A stretch of DNA of 64,000 nucleotides from an uncultured virus (IMG/VR IMGVR_UViG_3300020057_000339) (taxonomy: Duplodnaviria; Heunggongvirae; Uroviricota; Caudoviricetes), in the IMG/VR virus record IMGVR_UViG_3300020057_000339. One strand, written 5' to 3'. Below the pieces are notes generated by a model, which saw only the letters and a list, made by a program, of their open reading frames with translations, had not been told where the DNA came from and made no database searches. Shown here piece by piece: positions 3,556-13,347 of this stretch (position 1 is its first letter; the number at the start of each line of letters is the position of its first letter). A program made the translations under genes and the position numbers.

Positions 3556-3740
3556 ACGATCTAACGCTAGAAAACTTTCACGAAAAGACGGGGTTCCGTT
3601 TTCGTGTTAGCAACGAGAAGCTTAAGCCTAGAAAGCCTGAAGAGGTTTGTGTACTTGTCATAATAGTTACGATGTTGTTTTGTCTTCCTGTAATATTGTT
3701 CATGGTCTGTAAATCTTTTAATGACTACATCTCCCAATGA
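3552..3740 (+). CDS. Chimeric short ORF: internally deleted copy of the 7662 gene 5' end plus a hydrophobic tail
   Basis: 3552-3616 nearly identical to 7662-7726; 3618-3637 identical to 7806-7825. Confidence 0.5.
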   Translation: MNDLTLENFHEKTGFRFRVSNEKLKPRKPEEVCVLVIIVTMLFCLPVILFMVCKSFNDYISQ

Positions 3741-4570
3741 ATACTCATCCGCTTCATAGTATCGACTGGTACAAGGCCGACCACCGTCGCCAATACCCCG
3801 AGGGCACGAGCCTCGTTTTCTCGAACTTCACCCCGCGATCCTCACGGATCGACGGAGTGGAATCCGTGGTATTTTTTGGCCTTCAATACTTCATTCAAAG
3901 ATTTCTTGCTCACGAGTGGGATGTCAACTTCTTCTCGCGACCTGTTGAAGAAGTGGTCGCGAGGTACAAGCGTCGTGTAGACAATGCTCTTGGCAAGGAT
4001 ACCGTCCCGATGGATCACATCAGGGCGTTGCACGCCCTGGGATATCTGCCGGTTCGAATTCTCGCACTACCAGAAGGTAGTCGAGTTCCGATTGGGGTAC
4101 CTCCGGTAGTCATTCACAACACGCACCCGAGCGGCTTCTGGCTCCCGAATTACCTCGAAACGATTCTGTCTGCGACGCTCTGGCAACCCTGCACGTCAGC
4201 CACGATCGCGGCAGAATACAAGAAGGAATTTGTGCGAGCGGCGAAAGAGACCGGAGCTGACGTTGGTTTTACTTCCTTTCAAGGTCACGACTTCTCGTTC
4301 CGTGGCATGCCCGGTATCGAAGCTGCCTGCACGAGTGGTGCGGCTCACCTTTTATCCTTTGTCGGATCGGACACCGTTCCAGCGATTGACTTCCTTGAAC
4401 AGTATTACGGTGCCGACTCCGACAAAGAGCTTGTCGGATGTAGCGTGGCGGCAACCGAACATTCTGTCGCCTCTTTAGTATCAATGGATAGGGCAGCTAT
4501 CATCACTTCTGTAGAAGAAGAGTGGAATGAAGCGTCACAAACTTGGAAGTTCATTAGATCGCTTCCTTGA
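3737..4570 (+). CDS. Nicotinamide phosphoribosyltransferase-like (NadV/Namat), N-terminal half
   Basis: DWYKADHRRQYP, NFTPRS, VFFGLQY, HDFSFRG, ATEHSV motifs. Confidence 0.88.
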   Translation: MNTHPLHSIDWYKADHRRQYPEGTSLVFSNFTPRSSRIDGVESVVFFGLQYFIQRFLAHEWDVNFFSRPVEEVVARYKRRVDNALGKDTVPMDHIRALHALGYLPVRILALPEGSRVPIGVPPVVIHNTHPSGFWLPNYLETILSATLWQPCTSATIAAEYKKEFVRAAKETGADVGFTSFQGHDFSFRGMPGIEAACTSGAAHLLSFVGSDTVPAIDFLEQYYGADSDKELVGCSVAATEHSVASLVSMDRAAIITSVEEEWNEASQTWKFIRSLP

Positions 4571-4585
4571 TAAGTTATCTTTTGC

Positions 4586-4614
4586 TTGACATTCCGAACA
4601 CTCCGTTGTATACT
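4586..4614 (+). promoter_or_regulatory. sigma70-type promoter between the two NAMPT halves
   Basis: TTGACA-17 bp-TATACT. Confidence 0.75.
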
Positions 4615-4625
4615 AATACATTACC

Positions 4626-5402
4626 ATGACTCGAAAACGAATTCGCACTCTTAACGAACACGAAAAACTCTTCTATGGCGAATTAGAGTATTTCAAGCGT
4701 CTACTTAGTGTCTACCCTACAGGCATCGTTAGTGTCGTATCAGACACTTGGGACTACTGGGGTGTTCTAACTACCATCCTCCCGCAATTGCGGGAGGAAA
4801 TCATGGCCCGAAATGGTAAGTTGGTGATTCGACCGGACTCAAGTCCTAAGACGCCACTGGAGATCATTTGCGGAGACCCTGACGCCGCACCCGACAGTCC
4901 GGAATTCAAGGGATCTGTTGAAGTACTTTGGGAGCTTTTTGGCGGCGTCACGAATGCCGCAGGCTTCAAGGAATTGGATTCGCACATCGGTCTGATCTAC
5001 GGCGACAGCATCACCTTGCCTTTGGCAAGAAAGATCAATCAAGGGCTTAAGGCTAAGGGCTTCGCAAGCGTAAATTGGGTCGCTGGTATCGGCAGCTACA
5101 CATATCAGTATGTAACTCGCGACACATTTGGTTTCGCGATGAAGGCCACCTTCGGTGTGGTTAACGGCGAGGAACGAGCCATTTTCAAAGACCCCAAGAC
5201 AAACAAGGGGGCTTTCAGCAAGAAGTCTGCCAAGGGACTGATCGCTGTCTACGAAGCTAATTTCGGCAAGTCATTTGGGATGCGACAGGAAGCTTCGTGG
5301 GAACAGGTCAACTCCTGTGCCTTCCAACTTGTTTACGAAAACGGCATGCAATACAACACAACTACGCTCGCTGAAATCCGAGCCCGACTTAACCATGAGT
5401 GA
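4626..5402 (+). CDS. Nicotinamide phosphoribosyltransferase-like, C-terminal half
   Basis: YPTGIVSVVSDTWDYW, VIRPDS, GLIYGDSIT, TRDTFGFAMKAT, KKSAKG motifs. Confidence 0.88.
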   Translation: MTRKRIRTLNEHEKLFYGELEYFKRLLSVYPTGIVSVVSDTWDYWGVLTTILPQLREEIMARNGKLVIRPDSSPKTPLEIICGDPDAAPDSPEFKGSVEVLWELFGGVTNAAGFKELDSHIGLIYGDSITLPLARKINQGLKAKGFASVNWVAGIGSYTYQYVTRDTFGFAMKATFGVVNGEERAIFKDPKTNKGAFSKKSAKGLIAVYEANFGKSFGMRQEASWEQVNSCAFQLVYENGMQYNTTTLAEIRARLNHE

Positions 5403-6465
5403 TCTTCTTGTACTTGTTGTGGAGATTGACGAAGTACATCCGCATCCTAATGCGGATAAGCTTGAAATTGTGAAAGTTGGTGGTTGGCAGATTGTCTCTG
5501 GCAAGGGCAATTATGTTGTCGGTCAGCTAGCCGTCCATGTTCCGCCCGATGTTATGGTGCCAAAGGACCGGGCTATTGCCTGGGGTGTACGCGACTATCT
5601 TTCGTGGAACAAAGACGCCACTAGGGGTCGCGTCAAGGCCGTGAAGCTACGCGGTGCTCCTAGTTTTGGCTTCCTCGCTCCTGTGCCGGGTGATGATCCT
5701 ATTGGAACGAATCTGGCCGAATATCTTGGCATTGAAAAATACGAAGAGCCCGAAAGTACGTCGCCGGGACAGATGGCCCGCAATCATCCGCTCTTACATA
5801 CGTACACGGATATTCAGAATCTTCGCAACTTCCCGGATCAATTGAATTACGGAGCACCGTTGATTCTGACGGAAAAGATTCATGGCACGAATAGCCGCGT
5901 GGGCTGGGTTCGTTCCTCGAACGAGATAGGCAATGACTACCTTGAAAGGATTGCTGGTACTCACCGCACGCAACGTAAGATTGAGCAGTCCGGAGTTTAC
6001 GGTCTACCTTTCGAGCTTTACGATAAGGGCCTGAATACCTTGTACGATATCCTGACAACCACGAGCGTACCAGGACACATCGACTCCATTCTCGTCTTCG
6101 GCGAGATCTTCGGTCCTGGCGTACAGGATTTGACTTACGGCAAAGAAAAGGCGTGGCGTATTTTCGACATCGCGATCAACGGCACTTACCTGCCCTGGGC
6201 GTACGTCAAGGAAATCTGCGTTCAATGCGAATTACCGATCGTCCCGCACATAAACCCTGCTGTTTACACTTTCAAGGAATTGTGTGAACTAGCGGAAGGC
6301 GACAGTGTGTTGTCGCCCGGTCAAATAAAAGAGGGTATAGTTGTCCGTCCAATGGACGAAGAGACTTGGGGCAAGGGAGATCTTGACCCGCATCCGAAGC
6401 GTCGTATTTTCAAGGTCATTAGTCATGATTACCTGACCCGTAAGGGCGGAACCGAGCGTCATTGA
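5395..6465 (+). CDS. RNA ligase, DRB0094/Rnl2-like, with N-terminal OB domain
   Basis: HPHPNADKLE N-terminus; TEKIHGTN, FGEIFGPGVQ, FDI, EGIVVRP motifs. Confidence 0.88.
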   Translation: MSDLLVLVVEIDEVHPHPNADKLEIVKVGGWQIVSGKGNYVVGQLAVHVPPDVMVPKDRAIAWGVRDYLSWNKDATRGRVKAVKLRGAPSFGFLAPVPGDDPIGTNLAEYLGIEKYEEPESTSPGQMARNHPLLHTYTDIQNLRNFPDQLNYGAPLILTEKIHGTNSRVGWVRSSNEIGNDYLERIAGTHRTQRKIEQSGVYGLPFELYDKGLNTLYDILTTTSVPGHIDSILVFGEIFGPGVQDLTYGKEKAWRIFDIAINGTYLPWAYVKEICVQCELPIVPHINPAVYTFKELCELAEGDSVLSPGQIKEGIVVRPMDEETWGKGDLDPHPKRRIFKVISHDYLTRKGGTERH

Positions 6466-7550
6466 TGGATATGAAGCTTCCTATTCTTTATCATAAAGCC
6501 AAGGGCGGAGATCTTCGTCAATGGCGAGTTTGGGCCAAAGGCGACACGATCATGACCGAGTATGGTCAGGTTGGCGGCAAGCTTCAACAAAGCTTGAAAA
6601 AGGCTATCTCGAAGAACGTAGGACGTTCGAACGCCACGACGCCTGATGCACAAGCCCAGGCGGAGGCTCAATCACTCTGGAGCTTTAAAGTCGAGAGAAA
6701 GTACAGTGAGACGAAGGAAGGGGCTCAGGAGGAGTTACGCCTTCCGATGTTAGCTCATAAGTACGAGGATAAGAAGAAGAACGTCTCTTTCCCAGCTTTC
6801 GTGCAACCCAAGCTAGATGGCGTTCGCTGTTTAGCTGAATGGGAAGGTAATAAGGTCGTTTTGACCTCGCGAGCGGGCAAGCCATACAAGATGCCGCCCG
6901 TTCAAGAGCAGCTTGAAAAGTGGTTGCCCCGCAACATGGTTCTTGATGGCGAGCTTTACTATCACGGCCTATCATGCCAAACGGTGACTTCGCTCGTCAA
7001 AAAGTGGAAGCCCGGCAGTGAGCAGATTATCTACAACGTCTATGACGTGCCGGTTTGTGACGAAGGCGATGAAACACTCACTTTTGAAGAACGTACACTC
7101 AAGCTGAATTCGATCGCGGAATTCAAAAATGTCAAACGTGTACCTACTTTTAAAGTCGCATCACACACAGAGCTAATGACTCTGTACGGTCTATTCGTCC
7201 AAGAGGGCTATGAAGGTGCAATTCTACGTCTTGGTCATGGACAATACCTTTGGGGATATCGCTCTTCTGAGCTTCTAAAGGTAAAGGAATTCCAAGATGC
7301 CGAATTCCTCGTTGTCGATGCTCGTGACGGTCGTGGCAAGATGACAGCGTGCGTCGTGTGGACCTGTCAAAGTAATGGTGGACTTTTCGAATGCACGATG
7401 AAGGCTACCATGGACGAACGTCGCCGCTTTTATGCGGAACGCAAAAAGTACATCGGTAAGAAGCTCACCGTCCGCTACTTCGACCTCACGGACGACGGTA
7501 TTCCCCGTTTCCCTGTAGGTGTCGTATTCCGTGATTCTAAGGATCTGTGA
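6462..7550 (+). CDS. ATP-dependent DNA ligase
   Basis: PMLA, QPKLDGVRC, LDGELY, EGYEGAILR, LLKVK, GIPRFP motifs. Confidence 0.92.
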   Translation: MMDMKLPILYHKAKGGDLRQWRVWAKGDTIMTEYGQVGGKLQQSLKKAISKNVGRSNATTPDAQAQAEAQSLWSFKVERKYSETKEGAQEELRLPMLAHKYEDKKKNVSFPAFVQPKLDGVRCLAEWEGNKVVLTSRAGKPYKMPPVQEQLEKWLPRNMVLDGELYYHGLSCQTVTSLVKKWKPGSEQIIYNVYDVPVCDEGDETLTFEERTLKLNSIAEFKNVKRVPTFKVASHTELMTLYGLFVQEGYEGAILRLGHGQYLWGYRSSELLKVKEFQDAEFLVVDARDGRGKMTACVVWTCQSNGGLFECTMKATMDERRRFYAERKKYIGKKLTVRYFDLTDDGIPRFPVGVVFRDSKDL

Positions 7551-7661
7551 AACACTCAATGCCCTGAGTAAGTTTAGACTATAATCACCCTTCCTACGAA
7601 TTCGAATTTCAGATAGACGCTAGAAACCCAACCCGTCATAATAGTTACATGGAGACACAAC

Positions 7662-8027
7662 ATGAATGATCTAACGTTAGAAAACTTTCACGAAAAGACG
7701 GGGTTCCGTTTTCGTGTTAGCAACGAACAGTTCGCACGTATCGAAGCTGGTACGTTTACACGAGAACAGGCATTTGCTGAGTTTATTGCGGCTGGTGGAG
7801 CCGATAAGCTTAAGCCTAGAAAGCCCGAGGTTCCTGATTCGGTCTATCTTTGCGATGGCTTGACGATCGCAAATTTCTCGGAAAGAGTGCAGGCGGCTAC
7901 GGGCGTGGTCCGTAGATTTCGCATGAGTCGTGAACAATGTCAACGACACAAGGACGGCACGCTCACTCGTGAGCGGGCATTACAAGAAGTTATCGCTGCT
8001 ATCGCAGCCAAGGAAATAGTAGTATGA
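7662..8027 (+). CDS. Hypothetical protein with two internal repeats
   Basis: LTxxNFxE..RFRxSxEQ..R...GTxTRExA occurs twice; promoter TAGACG(7614)-17 bp-CATAAT and GGAG SD upstream. Confidence 0.75.
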   Translation: MNDLTLENFHEKTGFRFRVSNEQFARIEAGTFTREQAFAEFIAAGGADKLKPRKPEVPDSVYLCDGLTIANFSERVQAATGVVRRFRMSREQCQRHKDGTLTRERALQEVIAAIAAKEIVV

Positions 8028-8395
8028 ATTTGAACGTAGTGATTTTGCAAGGTAATTTGACGGCTGATCCTGAGATCATCGGTCCAGAAAAGAACGTGGC
8101 TCGTTTTACCATCGCCGTGAACACCGGATTTGGTGACAAAAAGGAAACGGCATTCGTTGATTGTGTGGCCTTTGGTAAGCAGGTCGATACGATCAAGGTT
8201 TACTGCACGAAGGGTAAACAGATCATCGTAAAGGGCTCTATTCATCAGAACCGCTGGGAAACGAAGGATGGCGATAAGCGTTCTAAGCTTGAAATGATTC
8301 TCGACAGCTTCGGCGGATTCAATTTCGTCAGTGGTGGACCAAAGAGCGACGAACCTCCTGTGGAGGCGGCTACGAGCGAAGGCAAGCTGTTCTGA
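8024..8395 (+). CDS. ssb: Single-stranded DNA-binding protein
   Basis: NVVILQGNLTADPE, FTIAVN, FVDCVAFGK, KGKQIIVKG, acidic tail. Confidence 0.92.
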   Translation: MNLNVVILQGNLTADPEIIGPEKNVARFTIAVNTGFGDKKETAFVDCVAFGKQVDTIKVYCTKGKQIIVKGSIHQNRWETKDGDKRSKLEMILDSFGGFNFVSGGPKSDEPPVEAATSEGKLF

Positions 8396-8414
8396 TCCTT
8401 TAGATCAAGTTTTC

Positions 8415-8455
8415 ACAGGGGCGTGCTTGACAAGAGCACGCCCCTGTTGTATGAT
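8415..8455 (+). promoter_or_regulatory. sigma70 promoter embedded in a 13-bp hairpin (terminator-like)
   Basis: ACAGGGGCGTGCT-TGACAAG-AGCACGCCCCTGT; TTGACA(8427)-17 bp-TATGAT(8450); ATG at 8462. Confidence 0.75.
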
Positions 8456-8461
8456 AAAGCA

Positions 8462-8878
8462 ATGAAGAAGCTCATCATCTTTCGTGGGCCGAGTGGCTCA
8501 GGCAAGTCCACCGCCGCTAAAGCACTCGGAGGTCTCCACTTTGAGGCAGACGAATTCTTTATGCGGAGCGGCACGTACGTTTTTGAGGCCAATAAGCTGA
8601 GTCAAGCTCACGCTGACTGTCAACGTCGTGTTCGTGAAGCTGTCAGTAGCGAAAAAGAACTGGTGGTCGTGTCGAACACGAGCATGACTCGCTGGGAATT
8701 AACTCCGTACCTTCAAATGGCTAAGGAATTTGATTACGAAGTCACAATTTATCGAATCAAGGGTCCGTGGGACGCCAAACTATTCGCGTCCCGAAACACT
8801 CATGGTGTAACCAAAGAGATTGTTCAAAGGCAAATCAACAAGTATCAGCCGCTTGAAAGTGAACAAGAATATGCATGA
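8462..8878 (+). CDS. P-loop kinase (AAA_33/polynucleotide kinase-like)
   Basis: RGPSGSGKST Walker A; FEADEFF; VVVSNT; RNTHGV. Confidence 0.85.
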   Translation: MKKLIIFRGPSGSGKSTAAKALGGLHFEADEFFMRSGTYVFEANKLSQAHADCQRRVREAVSSEKELVVVSNTSMTRWELTPYLQMAKEFDYEVTIYRIKGPWDAKLFASRNTHGVTKEIVQRQINKYQPLESEQEYA

Positions 8879-9164
8879 CGATGATGAAGAAGAAGATGTC
8901 ACACCGCAACAAAGTCGGTGCTGGACGTGCAGACATGGCATGACGTTGCAAGAGAACGACGTGCAAATTTTCATGCAGCCAGAAATGATACAGGGCAATC
9001 CGTTCGACGGTGACAATGCAGAAAGTCCCGGAGTTTCTCAAATCTCGATTGACATCCAGAAAGTGCGATCGGTGTGTTTCTGGCGTTCGCAGCCCGGTCA
9101 GTCGATTGTATCACCGCTCGTCTTTAATGTCGTTACGGAGTGTAGTCGTTATGAAAAGAATTGA
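8871..9164 (+). CDS. Hypothetical protein, Cys-containing
   Basis: Overlaps both neighbours; CWTCRH..C..C. Confidence 0.6.
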   Translation: MHDDDEEEDVTPQQSRCWTCRHGMTLQENDVQIFMQPEMIQGNPFDGDNAESPGVSQISIDIQKVRSVCFWRSQPGQSIVSPLVFNVVTECSRYEKN

Positions 9165-9579
9165 ACAATTTCGTGGCGAATACGCCTTCCTGAGTAATTT
9201 CTACAGATGTAATGTAAGTTATGAGGGACTAATTTATCCTTCTAGCGAACATGCTTTTCAAGCCGCCAAGACCCTGAACATGGAAGCAAGGCGAGCATTT
9301 ACACAACCTTTAATGGATGCAAGCCTCTCTAAACACCTTGGCAGAGCACTGGTATTACGTCCCAATTGGGACAAGATCGTTGTAATGGAAGATATACTTG
9401 TAAGTAAATTTTCAGAAGAAGTGCTTAAGGACGCTCTTGTCGCCACTGGCGATGCCGAATTGATCGAAGGTAATACCTGGGGCGATACGTTTTGGGGAGT
9501 CTGCAACGGCAAGGGAAGTAATTTTCTGGGTAAGGCTCTCATGAATCTGCGAAAGAAGTTGACTACGTCCACGACGTAA
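9151..9579 (+). CDS. NADAR (YbiA-like) family protein
   Basis: FLSNFY, SSEHAFQAAK, LRPNWD, LIEGNTWGDTFWG, GSNFLGKALM. Confidence 0.92.
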   Translation: MKRIEQFRGEYAFLSNFYRCNVSYEGLIYPSSEHAFQAAKTLNMEARRAFTQPLMDASLSKHLGRALVLRPNWDKIVVMEDILVSKFSEEVLKDALVATGDAELIEGNTWGDTFWGVCNGKGSNFLGKALMNLRKKLTTSTT

Positions 9580-9587
9580 GGTATAAT
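9559..9587 (+). promoter_or_regulatory. sigma70 promoter with palindromic spacer, leaderless
   Basis: TTGACT-17 bp-TATAAT; TACGTC-CAC-GACGTA; ATG at 9593. Confidence 0.75.
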
Positions 9588-9592
9588 GACAC

Positions 9593-10825
9593 ATGGAACA
9601 TCTTGAGCTTTGCCGCCGCATTCAAGCGGTTGGTGGCCACCCCCTTGTGGTTGGTGGGGCCGTCCGCGATCACGTAATGGGTCGCGAGTCGAATGACGTG
9701 GATATTTGCGTCATTGGCCTGACGATGCCGCAGTTGCTTGCAGCCTTTCCAGAAGGCGATGCCGTAGGTAAGGATTTTCCTATCGTTATCGTTGCGGGTA
9801 TCGAAATTGCCCTAGCTCGTACAGAACGCAAGGTCGGTGCTGGTCACACGGGATTCGTCTGTGATACGGGCGGCATCACGATTGAACAAGATTTGTTCCG
9901 TCGTGACTTGACGATTAATGCTATGGCTATGGAACCGTTCACGGGTGAGATTATCGACCCGTTCGGTGGTCGTAAGGCAATTGCTGAAAAAAGACTGGCT
10001 CCCGTCAGCAAGCACTTCGTTGAGGATCCGTTGCGTGTGTTGCGTGCCGCAAGGTTCGCGGCCCAACTCGGATTCCAGTCTACGCAAGAGCTTATGAATA
10101 TGTGCCAATTCTTGCGTTTCGAGCTTCCCACGCTCGCTGGCGAGCGTGTTTTTGAGGAGCTTATGAAGGCGTTACGTTCGGCCAAGCCGAGTGTATTCTT
10201 TGAGGCACTTCGAGACTTCCAATGTTTGGCAGAAGTGTTCCCAGAAATCGCTGCTCTGGCTGGACGAGTCCAACCAGAGAAGCATCACCCGGAGGGTGAC
10301 GCATTCGTTCACACGCTTCTAGTCGTGGATCGAGCACGCGAACTCGGGGCGGATGACGCCACGATGTTTGCTGCATTGGTCCACGATCTAGGAAAGGCCG
10401 TGACTGACGACGATAACCTACCGCACCATTACAATCATGAGGCGTTGGGTATACCATTGGTACATAAATTCTGTGATCGTTTAAAGGTGCCCAACGCACT
10501 CAGAGATGTTGGTGTGGCTACGTCACGAGAGCACCTGAATATCCATCGTTTCGATTCCTTGAGGTCTACGACAAAGGTACGACTCCTTGATCGACTGGGG
10601 GCCGCTCACGGCAACACGCTAATTGAATGCGTTACGCTTGCTTCGCAGGCAGACGCTCAGGGGCGTGGACCCGACTTTCATGACAAGCCCTATCCGCAGC
10701 GTCAAGCTGTGCTAGACGCTGCGGATAGATTCCGCAGCGTGAAGGGCGATCAGTTCGCTAATTTACGAAATGGCGAAGCCATTAAGCAAAAGATGGAGCA
10801 AGCACGAGTAAAGGCACTCGCATGA
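9593..10825 (+). CDS. cca: tRNA nucleotidyltransferase (CCA-adding) with HD domain
   Basis: VGGAVRD, DVD, DLFRRDLTINAMA, EDPLRVLRAARF, HHPEGD, LVHDLGK. Confidence 0.92.
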   Translation: MEHLELCRRIQAVGGHPLVVGGAVRDHVMGRESNDVDICVIGLTMPQLLAAFPEGDAVGKDFPIVIVAGIEIALARTERKVGAGHTGFVCDTGGITIEQDLFRRDLTINAMAMEPFTGEIIDPFGGRKAIAEKRLAPVSKHFVEDPLRVLRAARFAAQLGFQSTQELMNMCQFLRFELPTLAGERVFEELMKALRSAKPSVFFEALRDFQCLAEVFPEIAALAGRVQPEKHHPEGDAFVHTLLVVDRARELGADDATMFAALVHDLGKAVTDDDNLPHHYNHEALGIPLVHKFCDRLKVPNALRDVGVATSREHLNIHRFDSLRSTTKVRLLDRLGAAHGNTLIECVTLASQADAQGRGPDFHDKPYPQRQAVLDAADRFRSVKGDQFANLRNGEAIKQKMEQARVKALA

Positions 10826-11883
10826 AAGACTACATACTTTATCAGAAGCTCATTCGCGAGGTAGACGAAGGTCGTGTCAACGTCTCACGAACGGGCGACC
10901 TCGCGATCTTCAAATACACCCAGGACACCCACATCCAGGGTCTCTGGAACGACACGAACCGTCAGGCTCGCGGCATCATCTTCCGTTCCGATGGAACGTT
11001 AGTGGCTCGCCCCTTTCCGAAGTTCTTCAACCTCGGAGAAGTCTCCGAGACGATGATGGAGAATCTTCCGTGGGATGAAGAGATCGAGATCACGGAAAAG
11101 GTGGACGGCTCATGTGGTATCGGATACTTCTTGACGGGTGACGTGTCGTGGTCACTGGCGACCCCCGGTAGCATGGAGTCGAATCAGGCAAAGATGGGCA
11201 CTCAGATCTTGAATGCTAACTATCCTACGCAATTGCTGCCGAAGGACTGCACGCCAATCTTCGAGATTATCTATCCAGAGAACCGAATCGTCGTAGATTA
11301 CAAGGGCGAGACGTTCCTGTGTCTACTCGGTGTCATCGAGCACGGCGGGACGGAATGGCACCCCATGCGAGTTGACCAACTCGCAGAAAAGTGTGGCTTT
11401 AAGCGGCCCCGCCGCTACAATCTGGACTTACGTGGCGACATTCCTTTCGAGGATAACCACGAGGGATACGTCGCTCGCTTTGCGAGCGGTCGTCGTGTTA
11501 AAGTCAAATCACCGGCCTACCTGCGTGTCCACCGACTCCTGAATTACATGAGCCCGAAGGGGGTCATCGAGCTTATCCGTGGCAAGGAATACGGCGTAAC
11601 GCTTCGCGAATTGCCTCATGGTATTCGACAGGACTTCGACGACATCCGTGCTTACGTGCAGACTATGCACGACAAGCTGCGTATCGAGACTGAGGATATT
11701 GCCGGTCGCATCCCTGATGCAGATCGCAAGACGCAAGCTCTCTGGATCCAGGCAAACACGCCCAAGACCTTAACTGGTATTGTCTTTGGTCTATTAGATA
11801 AGAAGAAGATGATAGACAATATCTGGAAAATTGTCCTTGAAAAGGTTAAGGATGAAAAAGGCAAGCCCGTCACGCAAGAATGA
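10822..11883 (+). CDS. T4 Rnl1-like RNA ligase
   Basis: ARGIIF, ARPFPKFFN, EKVDGS, FEIIYPENRIVVDY, EGYV, VKVKSPAY. Confidence 0.9.
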   Translation: MKDYILYQKLIREVDEGRVNVSRTGDLAIFKYTQDTHIQGLWNDTNRQARGIIFRSDGTLVARPFPKFFNLGEVSETMMENLPWDEEIEITEKVDGSCGIGYFLTGDVSWSLATPGSMESNQAKMGTQILNANYPTQLLPKDCTPIFEIIYPENRIVVDYKGETFLCLLGVIEHGGTEWHPMRVDQLAEKCGFKRPRRYNLDLRGDIPFEDNHEGYVARFASGRRVKVKSPAYLRVHRLLNYMSPKGVIELIRGKEYGVTLRELPHGIRQDFDDIRAYVQTMHDKLRIETEDIAGRIPDADRKTQALWIQANTPKTLTGIVFGLLDKKKMIDNIWKIVLEKVKDEKGKPVTQE

Positions 11884-11915
11884 ATACTACATTTCTACCA
11901 GCTGATAACATTGAT

Positions 11916-12073
11916 CAAGTCGGGGCAGGATATGCCCACGACGCTAAATGGACGCGGAGCGGGCGTAAGACTCCCCTGGGAGCAACCCGTGTTGAAACGT
12001 CAAGCCAACCGTACAGCGACGAAAGTCGCCTAGCCGGAGAATCCCCGTGCCTTTAGGTCGGGGAGCATGTCAA
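11916..12073 (+). mobile_element. Orphan IS200/IS605-family right end / TnpB omega-RNA-like element
   Basis: Structured 3' region ending GAATCCCCGTGCCTTTAGGTCGGGGAGCATGTCAA; hairpins GGGCA-GGATA-TGCCC, CTCCC-CT-GGGAG, GCGAC-GAAA-GTCGC; no tnpA/tnpB ORF. Confidence 0.7.
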
Positions 12074-12104
12074 GTAAACTAAGCAACCTCATTAAGAAAG
12101 CTAC

Positions 12105-12587
12105 ATGGTAAATAAAACGGTATACTTGGCTGGTCCAATCAGTGGTCTCACGTATGACGAAGCTACAGAATGGCGTCAAGACGCACAAGAAGAGCTTGCT
12201 AAATCAGGCATCAAGGCCATTAGCCCGCTCAGTTCAGCGGTGCATCTACGTCATCACAAAGGTCTATTAACTGATTGTGAAATCGTACCTGGACTTGAGT
12301 GTGCGGTGCGTGCCATGAGTACGCCGACTGGTGTTGTGACTCGTGACAGGTTTTATTGTCTCAATACTGATGTCATGATTCTCAATTTACTTGGCTCGAA
12401 AAGAGTTTCTATTGGATCAATGGTAGAAGTCGGCTGGGCCAATGCCCGAGATATTCCTATCATCTTAATCATTGAAGAGACTGGCAATACACACGAACAT
12501 GCATTTGTCACCGAATGCTGTCAGTTTCGCACGACCAATATCGCAGACGCCCTGTACGTCGTGAAGGGTATCTTAGGGGAGTACTAA
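12105..12587 (+). CDS. Nucleoside 2-deoxyribosyltransferase-like / nucleotide N-glycosidase
   Basis: VYLAGPI, RD..D, SIGSMVEVGWA motifs. Confidence 0.82.
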   Translation: MVNKTVYLAGPISGLTYDEATEWRQDAQEELAKSGIKAISPLSSAVHLRHHKGLLTDCEIVPGLECAVRAMSTPTGVVTRDRFYCLNTDVMILNLLGSKRVSIGSMVEVGWANARDIPIILIIEETGNTHEHAFVTECCQFRTTNIADALYVVKGILGEY

Positions 12588-12687
12588 AGACACCTACAGT
12601 TTTTTCAAGATTGATGCACGCATGAATTGGTTTGATGAAGTAGACTATGGTACACCACACGATACTCTAACAGTAGGACTAGAAGAC

Positions 12688-13347
12688 ATGACTAAAAAGA
12701 CCCCCCATGCCTCTCCAGTGTTCATTGCACTGTCAGGTAAGAAACAAGTTGGTAAAGATAGCTCAGCTATGTTTATCAAAAAAATACTTGAAACAACCGG
12801 AAAACGCGTAGTCATTACTTCGTTCGCCGACCCTCTCAAGAATATGTGCATTGACATCTTGGGCTTGAGTTCTGCGGAAGTCTACGGCACTGACGTACAA
12901 AAGAACGAACGCTCCCCCATTCTATGGGATGGATTCACTCTCGACGTTCGCTTGAAATATAGTATAGAAATTGACCCACTTGATGGTAAACTACTGCCGC
13001 GAACTGGTGCCATGACTAATCGTGAAGTGCTTCAAGTGATGGGTACTGACATCTTTCGTGCGATTTACGATCCAGTATGGGCTAAAGCTCCATTTAACCG
13101 CGATTGGGGCACTGACGTAGTAATCATAACGGACTGTCGCTTTCCTAACGAAAAGAGCGTGACAGAAGAGGCGGGCGGCGTCATCATTAGACTGGAGAGG
13201 TCTACGGGCTTTAAAGATAATCACGCAAGTGAAACGGCCCTAGATAACGAAGTGTTTGAGAACACGTACCAGAACAATGGTTCATTCGATGACCTTGAAA
13301 ACTATCTACGCTCCGTCTTGAAAAAATATGGTTTGATCAATGACTGA
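12688..13347 (+). CDS. Deoxynucleoside monophosphate kinase
   Basis: SGKKQVGKD, SFADPLK, REVLQVMGTD, ITDCRFPNE, HASE. Confidence 0.9.
   Translation: MTKKTPHASPVFIALSGKKQVGKDSSAMFIKKILETTGKRVVITSFADPLKNMCIDILGLSSAEVYGTDVQKNERSPILWDGFTLDVRLKYSIEIDPLDGKLLPRTGAMTNREVLQVMGTDIFRAIYDPVWAKAPFNRDWGTDVVIITDCRFPNEKSVTEEAGGVIIRLERSTGFKDNHASETALDNEVFENTYQNNGSFDDLENYLRSVLKKYGLIND

Follow-up and report, generated by a model that had tools for sequence, protein, structure and literature searches.

A probable right-end deletion scar of an IS200/IS605 tnpB element with a complete omegaRNA scaffold in a large phage

A remnant of 175 nt in a large phage genome (11899..12073, + strand) is very probably a recent and immobile right-end deletion scar of an IS200/IS605 tnpB element, which carries a complete scaffold that has no target. 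The remnant consists of the last 52 tnpB codons and the right end, and the left end and the rest of tnpB are deleted. Positions refer to the window, which is the whole stretch of 64,000 nucleotides that was analysed. The preliminary description of this locus had proposed an internally deleted IS200/IS605 element that retained the whole omegaRNA scaffold, and this is borne out by the scaffold pairs that are kept (35 of 36) and by the homology to an intact element (L028). Among the three fates offered there, which are loading of a nuclease in trans, a decoy and an inert scar, the inert scar fits best. An ordinary recent scar is the most likely reading because no guide target was found.

Origin of the remnant from a tnpB element

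The window belongs to a large phage and carries tRNA genes, RNA and DNA ligases, nucleotide and sugar enzymes, and DNA polymerase III alpha. The nearest record (G001) has 151,810 bases and is 96% complete; 99% of sampled words are common to both, and the locus lies on its reverse strand. The remnant is located in a long run of + strand genes. A T4 Rnl1-like RNA ligase gene (10822..11883, +; PF09511, E 1.3e-18; phrog_562), whose stop codon overlaps the ATG at 11880, lies upstream. A nucleoside 2-deoxyribosyltransferase-like gene (12105..12587, +; PF05014), which abuts a native spacer directly, lies downstream. The sequencing runs with the locus are labelled as microbial mat, freshwater, hypersaline lake, and estuary metagenomes.

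The letters given in the preliminary description are correct, with TTGAT at 11911-11915, TCAA at 12070-12073, and the quoted 20-mer behind it at 12074-12093. The IS200/IS605 right end recognised there is real, and its terminal hairpin is matched by phage and plasmid records in BLAST, several of them under tnpB genes. The hairpin region is matched by 9 of 10 phage records and 10 of 11 plasmid records, and most matches stop at or beside 12073. The exceptions are the tenth phage-type match (listed twice), which runs 8 nt further, and the eleventh plasmid match, which lies in the 3' coding part of tnpB. A lack of similarity to tnpB-associated right ends, which would have spoken against the proposal, is not what was found: window 11901-12073 aligns to L028 4973-5145 without gaps at 85% identity over 173 nt, and the similarity ends at TCAA. 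L027 and L028 are identical copies of an intact tnpB-only element of 1388 nt in another phage. The element splits a phage ORF (L028:3642-5320) and encodes a compact TnpB of 410 aa with a predicted CTAC motif.

The sequence had been regarded as non-coding, which does not hold for 11901-12056. This part codes for the tail of TnpB, with 42 of 51 residues (82%) identical to P0003, a full-form TnpB of 410 aa. Among the best 120 of 3116 homologues of P0003, the nearest is 80% identical, the next are 53-58% identical, and those with a named organism are cyanobacteria. The tail belongs to an in-frame fusion ORF of 58 aa (11880..12056, +) that joins the start of a native ORF to the TnpB C-terminus and has no nuclease domain. 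This ORF, used as protein query, gave one match among 37 candidates, which is a TnpB, and it has no Pfam or PHROG match.

The right end (12039..12073, +) consists of the guide GAAT, the subterminal hairpin, and the cleavage site TCAA; GAAT and TCAA are invariant in 13 of 13 aligned ends. The hairpin (12043-12063) has GAAT (12039-12042) at its 5' foot, and the last base of TCAA is 10 nt from its 3' foot. The ends of IS608 exhibit the same GAAT, hairpin, and TCAA 10 nt from the hairpin foot (PMC3201880, PMC5934647). IS608 also has a left end (AAAG/TTAC), whereas the remnant has none and its nearest relative L028 has AGAG/CTAC.

The phage that carries L028 (G007) is distant from the window phage, with DNA polymerase pieces that are 29-49% identical, and no Y1 transposase was found in G007. 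The matches to its DNA polymerase III alpha fall into six separate pieces (G007:128464-135134), which suggests introns or inteins.

Insertion site, target motif and flanks

The element had been described as starting right after TTGAT. The homology to relatives runs from 11901 through TTGAT instead, and the boundary lies at 11898/11899, which is 20 nt upstream of the first conserved helix. TTGAT (11911..11915, +) falls within the tnpB codons for Ile-Asp (ATT GAT here, ATC GAC in L028) and is not a boundary. It differs from TCGAC of L028 by two synonymous changes, is not conserved in relatives, and occurs 281 times in the window on both strands. As a target motif it is replaced by a predicted CTAC, and TGAT is predicted by none of nine relatives' left ends. 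The putative TnpA target and TAM, CTAC (11895..11898, +), is native phage DNA with the left junction directly after it; the target of ISDra2, in contrast, is TTGAT (PMC8612924).

In this family, the target is read by a tetramer at the base of the hairpin in the left end (PMC3201880, PMC5934647). A left-end rule was built on the IS608 pattern, with two pairs taken from PMC5934647 and the last pair and the fixed A deduced from AAAG/TTAC and GAAT/TCAA. With this pattern, which was widened after the sequences had been seen, a left end is recognisable in 9 of 13 relatives, and the predicted tetramer is present 15-17 nt upstream in all nine (TTAT, TAAC, TTAC, TCAC in five, and CTAC in L028). The left-end guide AGAG of L028 predicts CTAC, which is found 16 nt upstream of AGAG. 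When the flanks of L028 are rejoined at the CTAC cut, one frame is open and both other frames contain stops. The search for an empty site of L028 gave seven matches, of which two are the element itself and five are unrelated. The CTAC target is carried over to the remnant from this 85% identical relative, the left end of the parent element itself being unseen. The TAM of TnpB equals the transposase target in published systems (PMC8612924, PMC10690162), and we assume this equality for CTAC here.

All nine left ends begin with C, and base 11899 of the window is also C. This C may be the first base of the left end, of which at most one base would be kept. No left-end hairpin pattern was found near the remnant. 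A TnpA cut at a false right end within tnpB was also considered for the junction and rejected, as a longer copy of the element has bases other than TCAA ahead of this junction.

Vacant alleles exist, as the preliminary description had anticipated (L003, L107, and runs X1, X7, and X8), but in the sister phages they read CTAC|GTATTG, with no TTGAT at the junction. In the sister phages L003 (95-97% identical) and L107, the match to the window extends through the CTAC at 11895-11898, breaks off there, and resumes at 12105. A small native phage ORF, which is 65 aa long in the sisters, begins at 11880; its first six codons (11880..11898, +) are identical in L003 and L107. Between the junctions, L107 has 174 nt that complete the 65-aa ORF, a spacer of 27 nt, and 330 nt with a paralogous 75-aa ORF; part of the spacer is missing in L003. 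In the window, the native spacer that separates the two small ORFs in element-free sisters is located at 12078..12104 (+; 27 of 27 bases identical in L107 and in run X8). The downstream gene is joined straight to this spacer, and the 330 nt including the second small ORF are absent. The four bases 12074..12077 (+) are GTA and one unexplained A.

In the empty site CTAC is followed by GTATTG, and the window flank after TCAA begins with the same GTA. The frequencies in the window are 0.0029 for the CTAC junction and 0.014 for the GTA flank, and a double match is unlikely by chance, with the caveat that the junction had been seen before the left-end rule was derived. The two matches to the empty allele point to an insertion after CTAC, followed by loss of the left end and most of tnpB. 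The second flank deletion also ends at a CTAC, and neither of the two flank deletions is a clean microhomology join. The two small ORFs (65 and 75 aa; L003:5059-5494, L107, and L004:5279-5515) are tandem paralogs and are lost in the window allele. They have no PHROG or Atlas match and no family was found for them; one homologue is present in a more distant phage.

An element bounded by TTGAT and TCAA, that is, a mobile PATE or MITE, would be consistent with the position of TTGAT, 4 nt before the first helix, and with the report that PATEs often encode omegaRNA (bioRxiv 2023.03.14.532601). PATEs are likewise gene-less IS200/IS605 derivatives whose omegaRNA needs TnpB in trans, and no protein gene is left in the remnant apart from the 52-codon tnpB tail. 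However, TTGAT lies in tnpB codons, the left-end hairpin is absent, and the empty alleles have no TTGAT at the junction. PATEs have both ends and can be mobilised, whereas the remnant has one end and is present as one copy in G001. We regard this explanation as extremely improbable; without a left end, the remnant is not a PATE.

The deletion scar probably formed as follows. An IS200/IS605 tnpB element, from a clade whose named members are cyanobacterial, would have inserted just 3' of CTAC at codon 7 of the small phage ORF, with TnpA presumably supplied from elsewhere. A deletion then removed the left end and all of tnpB except the last 52 codons, as comparison with relatives shows. Native DNA behind the right end, which comprised the body of the small ORF and the second small ORF, was also lost, before or after the insertion. 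As a result of the flank losses, the guide position is now GTAA followed by phage spacer DNA. Excision has been reported to need both ends (bioRxiv 2023.03.14.532601), and the scar, having no left end and hence no excision by TnpA, cannot move or recreate a target. Transcription of the scaffold probably occurs by read-through along the run of + strand genes, and should a cognate TnpB be present, the RNA could bind it. The parent nuclease should be unable to attack the scar allele, since the motif no longer adjoins the sequence that it once guarded. No sigma-70 promoter or terminator was found on the + strand at 11500-12700, and the phage encodes its own sigma factors.

Scaffold, guide and nuclease partners

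The predicted omegaRNA-type scaffold (11919..12073, +; the 155-nt conserved part) is complete, with a structure that rests on covariation among relatives. It consists of a hairpin (11919-11942), nested stems (11951-12001), a GNRA hairpin (12016-12029) that was read off the sequence and lies outside the consensus structure, and the right-end hairpin. The first conserved helix at 11919 is close to the start proposed before (11916). The multi-hairpin claim gains nothing from single-sequence folding, which is not above chance (z -1.13; -0.83 for the DNA hairpin), but is upheld by the relatives. Two-sided changes are present in 22 of 33 predicted pairs across 13 aligned ends, and 95.1% of paired cells can pair, compared with 79.2% in shuffles (0 of 500) and 34-43% in slid controls; these figures are generous, as the sequences are related to one another and the alignment scored is the one that had yielded the structure. 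The window retains 35 of 36 scaffold pairs. A pseudoknot of three pairs exhibits no covariation at all in the alignment and is not demonstrated.

The covariance-model check that had been suggested gave a divided outcome. Rfam gave nothing at gathering score; its best hit (RT-7, E 0.25, 14.9 of 116.8 bits) was taken as chance. The family model R1, which was built from 12 ends with L028 included and the window left out, scores the window at 154.4 bits over all 178 positions and a held-out intact element at 157.2. The omegaRNA or reRNA of ISDra2 (PMC8612924) and AmaTnpB (PMC10278001) likewise overlaps the tnpB 3' end and stops at the right-end cleavage site, with the flank as guide, which is the would-be guide in the remnant. 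The conserved part of 155 nt is inside the omegaRNA range of 79-466 nt reported there. Unlike those elements, the remnant has neither tnpB nor a left end, and its guide mismatches the empty site.

The first 16 bases of the guide comprise 12 bases of native phage spacer and mismatch the L107 empty site at 11 of 16 positions. The window, L107, L004, and pieces of G001 and G002 contain 1666 CTAC-adjacent sites, of which the closest mismatches the guide at 6 of 16 positions. The earlier statement that the guide has no match elsewhere in the window is in agreement with this search, in which no target with CTAC and guide was found in this phage or its sister. The proposed BLAST of the flank for a target was unproductive, with only matches of E at least 4 in phages and plasmids. 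No guide target was found in phage, sister, and public phage and plasmid records, which is the range that was searched. Near-matches to the first 14 nt of the guide at five other sites of G001 and G002 (1-2 mismatches) were rejected, as they have no CTAC, stand in other contexts, and no longer agree with the guide by base 15. Shifting the register on the empty allele leaves 3 of 16 mismatches, which are confined to the first four bases, but puts AATC at the TAM position; this alignment was rejected as well. ClpP matches of ~32% identity are uninformative about the host.

It had been claimed that no nuclease gene is present, and tnpB is indeed absent from the window (84 ORFs scanned; tblastn). 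The genome-wide search for tnpB that had been advised found one in G001, which is distant, IS607-like, and ~13.5 kb outside the window; no Y1 transposase was found in G001. In the RuvC motifs of the G001 TnpB, the residues D, E, and D are intact. This TnpB shares 35% identity with P0003, and its junction is G-rich and IS607-like (compare PMC10690162). Its right end scores 27.6 bits on R1, compared with 154.4 for the window; the 5' fold is common to both and the terminal hairpin is not. Judged from these sequences, cross-loading of the remnant scaffold by the G001 TnpB is unlikely, and a literature search on the use of non-cognate scaffolds gave nothing useful. Loading in trans, as formerly suggested, finds neither a cognate nuclease in the phage record nor a target. 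The guide RNAs of TldR are also phage-borne TnpB-derived RNA (PMC10705468). TldR is a nuclease-dead TnpB, whereas the window has no TnpB-family gene, the motifs of the G001 TnpB are intact, and no promoter target was found.

The G001 tnpB itself (L008:934-2240, which is G001 147844-149150) starts ~40 nt after a tRNA-Met gene, with no recombinase gene between them. G002 has the empty site of this tnpB behind a G run, and the element flank matches it in 15 of 16 bases; given this match, the product of the G001 tnpB could serve as a homing nuclease directed at sister phages. In addition, G001 has no counterpart of ~135 nt of native DNA upstream of its tnpB.

A functional reading is that the remnant serves as a stand-alone omegaRNA, which would be trimmed from a read-through transcript, loaded by a TnpB of the host or a co-infecting phage, and cut an unseen target. 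The simplest target would be a sister allele with CTAC directly before the bases from 12074. It has been reported that TnpB trims the 5' end of its RNA out of longer transcripts (PMC10278001) and that compatible effectors can use stand-alone omegaRNAs in trans (PMC10691335). Both reports count in favour of this reading, as do the complete scaffold and the longer identical-ended copy in the same sample type. If the flank deletions preceded the insertion, they would imply that such an empty allele once existed and was perhaps removed by drive. However, an allele joining 11898 to 12074 is absent in four runs, three metagenome matches to the spacer, and the viral collection, phages and plasmids gave only the E at least 4 matches, and the TnpB of the phage itself is as divergent as noted above, both in protein and in right end. 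The stand-alone omegaRNAs of OMEGA systems also have a scaffold with no effector gene, but they are described as mobilised and as sharing a genome with a compatible effector (PMC10691335), whereas the scar is immobile and accompanied by the distant IS607-like TnpB only. We consider this role very unlikely.

Alleles in metagenomes and significance of the locus

The alleles were compared in contigs of four runs (X1, X5, X7, and X8) from 20 listed. Runs X1 and X7 have scar and empty alleles, X8 has only the empty allele, and X5 has the scar, which places the scar allele in three of the four runs. In X1, the contig depth is 39.3 for the scar and 13.4 for the empty allele; X1 is possibly the source sample, and depth is not genome share. 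In the mat metagenomes X5 and X7, a loose end of tnpB is present upstream of 11899, which reads in frame G-H-V-H-D-R-D-E-N as in P0003. Since this loose end is in frame and no differing letters occur in the shared part, we conclude that the same element also exists as a longer copy and that the scar is of recent origin. One X5 contig spans 11899 to 12504, which suggests that the longer copy is at the same site in X5. A further near-identical end with a different flank is present in X7. An exact-pattern scan gave no match in viral contigs for the internal 20-mer, the guide, or the upstream tnpB loose end, and none in genome contigs for the subfamily motif.

The branching of the assembly graph at 11899 in X5 and X7 could also arise from an assembly chimera of phage and tnpB element. 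We give this very little weight, as two metagenome contigs (L108 and L109) carry the same sequence, identical over 6023 nt, and X5 contigs cross both junctions (11411-11928 and 11899-12504).

Some observations stand against the reading as a deletion scar. Only 20 nt separate the breakpoint from the first helix downstream of it, and the scaffold has suffered no damage; the youth of the scar explains the intact scaffold and not the position of the breakpoint. The fusion is in frame, which has a chance of 1 in 3. The allele is present in three of the four runs, its contig depth in X1 is higher, and the flank deletions are not clean microhomology joins.

The position of the breakpoint just outside the scaffold would be consistent with a selected lock or decoy, in which the scaffold is kept for cheap immunity to the homing element or to soak up the TnpB of a competitor. 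The guide that no longer fits the empty site and the presence of the allele in three of four runs also favour it. Any deletion that parts the motif from the flank gives immunity, however, and the scaffold is unnecessary for this. No sign of age or purifying selection is present, as the scar is identical to the longer copy where compared, and the loss of the two small ORFs could equally explain any advantage. We find selection of this kind very unlikely. An RNA decoy kept by the phage, in which a target-less omegaRNA from a phage operon would bind and waste cognate TnpB of the host or of a co-infecting phage with the element, while the allele itself would be immune to drive, is likewise very unlikely. 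RNA-based anti-CRISPRs are known. If true, the decoy would be their TnpB counterpart, caught arising with all three alleles in one community, and titration of TnpB by the scaffold would represent a novel type of defence against RNA-guided homing. In the literature covered, no one-ended omegaRNA was found as TnpB decoy in a phage.

Gene-less carriers of omegaRNA are already in print, as PATEs (bioRxiv 2023.03.14.532601) and as stand-alone omegaRNAs (PMC10691335), and the deletion scar as such matters little since such remnants have been described. The three alleles (empty, longer, and scar) occur together, and this could reveal how TnpB drives come to an end in populations of phages. The locus also points to the compact TnpB P0003 with a predicted, testable CTAC motif.

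Other features of this phage were observed. A nicotinamide phosphoribosyltransferase-like gene is present at 3737-5402 in two overlapping ORFs (277 and 258 aa), which together with a neighbouring phosphoribosyltransferase and a NADAR gene is possibly an NAD salvage set, split or frameshifted. The region 5275-11883, near tRNA genes, has two RNA ligases, a CCA/poly(A) polymerase-HD protein, and an AAA_33 kinase-like ORF, and looks like a tRNA repair cluster. Glycosyltransferases, methyltransferases, and GDP-sugar enzymes occupy ~20 kb at 35649-55990, where an IMPDH ORF with a weak N-terminal HNH match and a free HNH gene are also located. Hexapeptide-repeat genes are many at 48-482 and in L020 (G001 133-152 kb) and are variable between G001 and G002.
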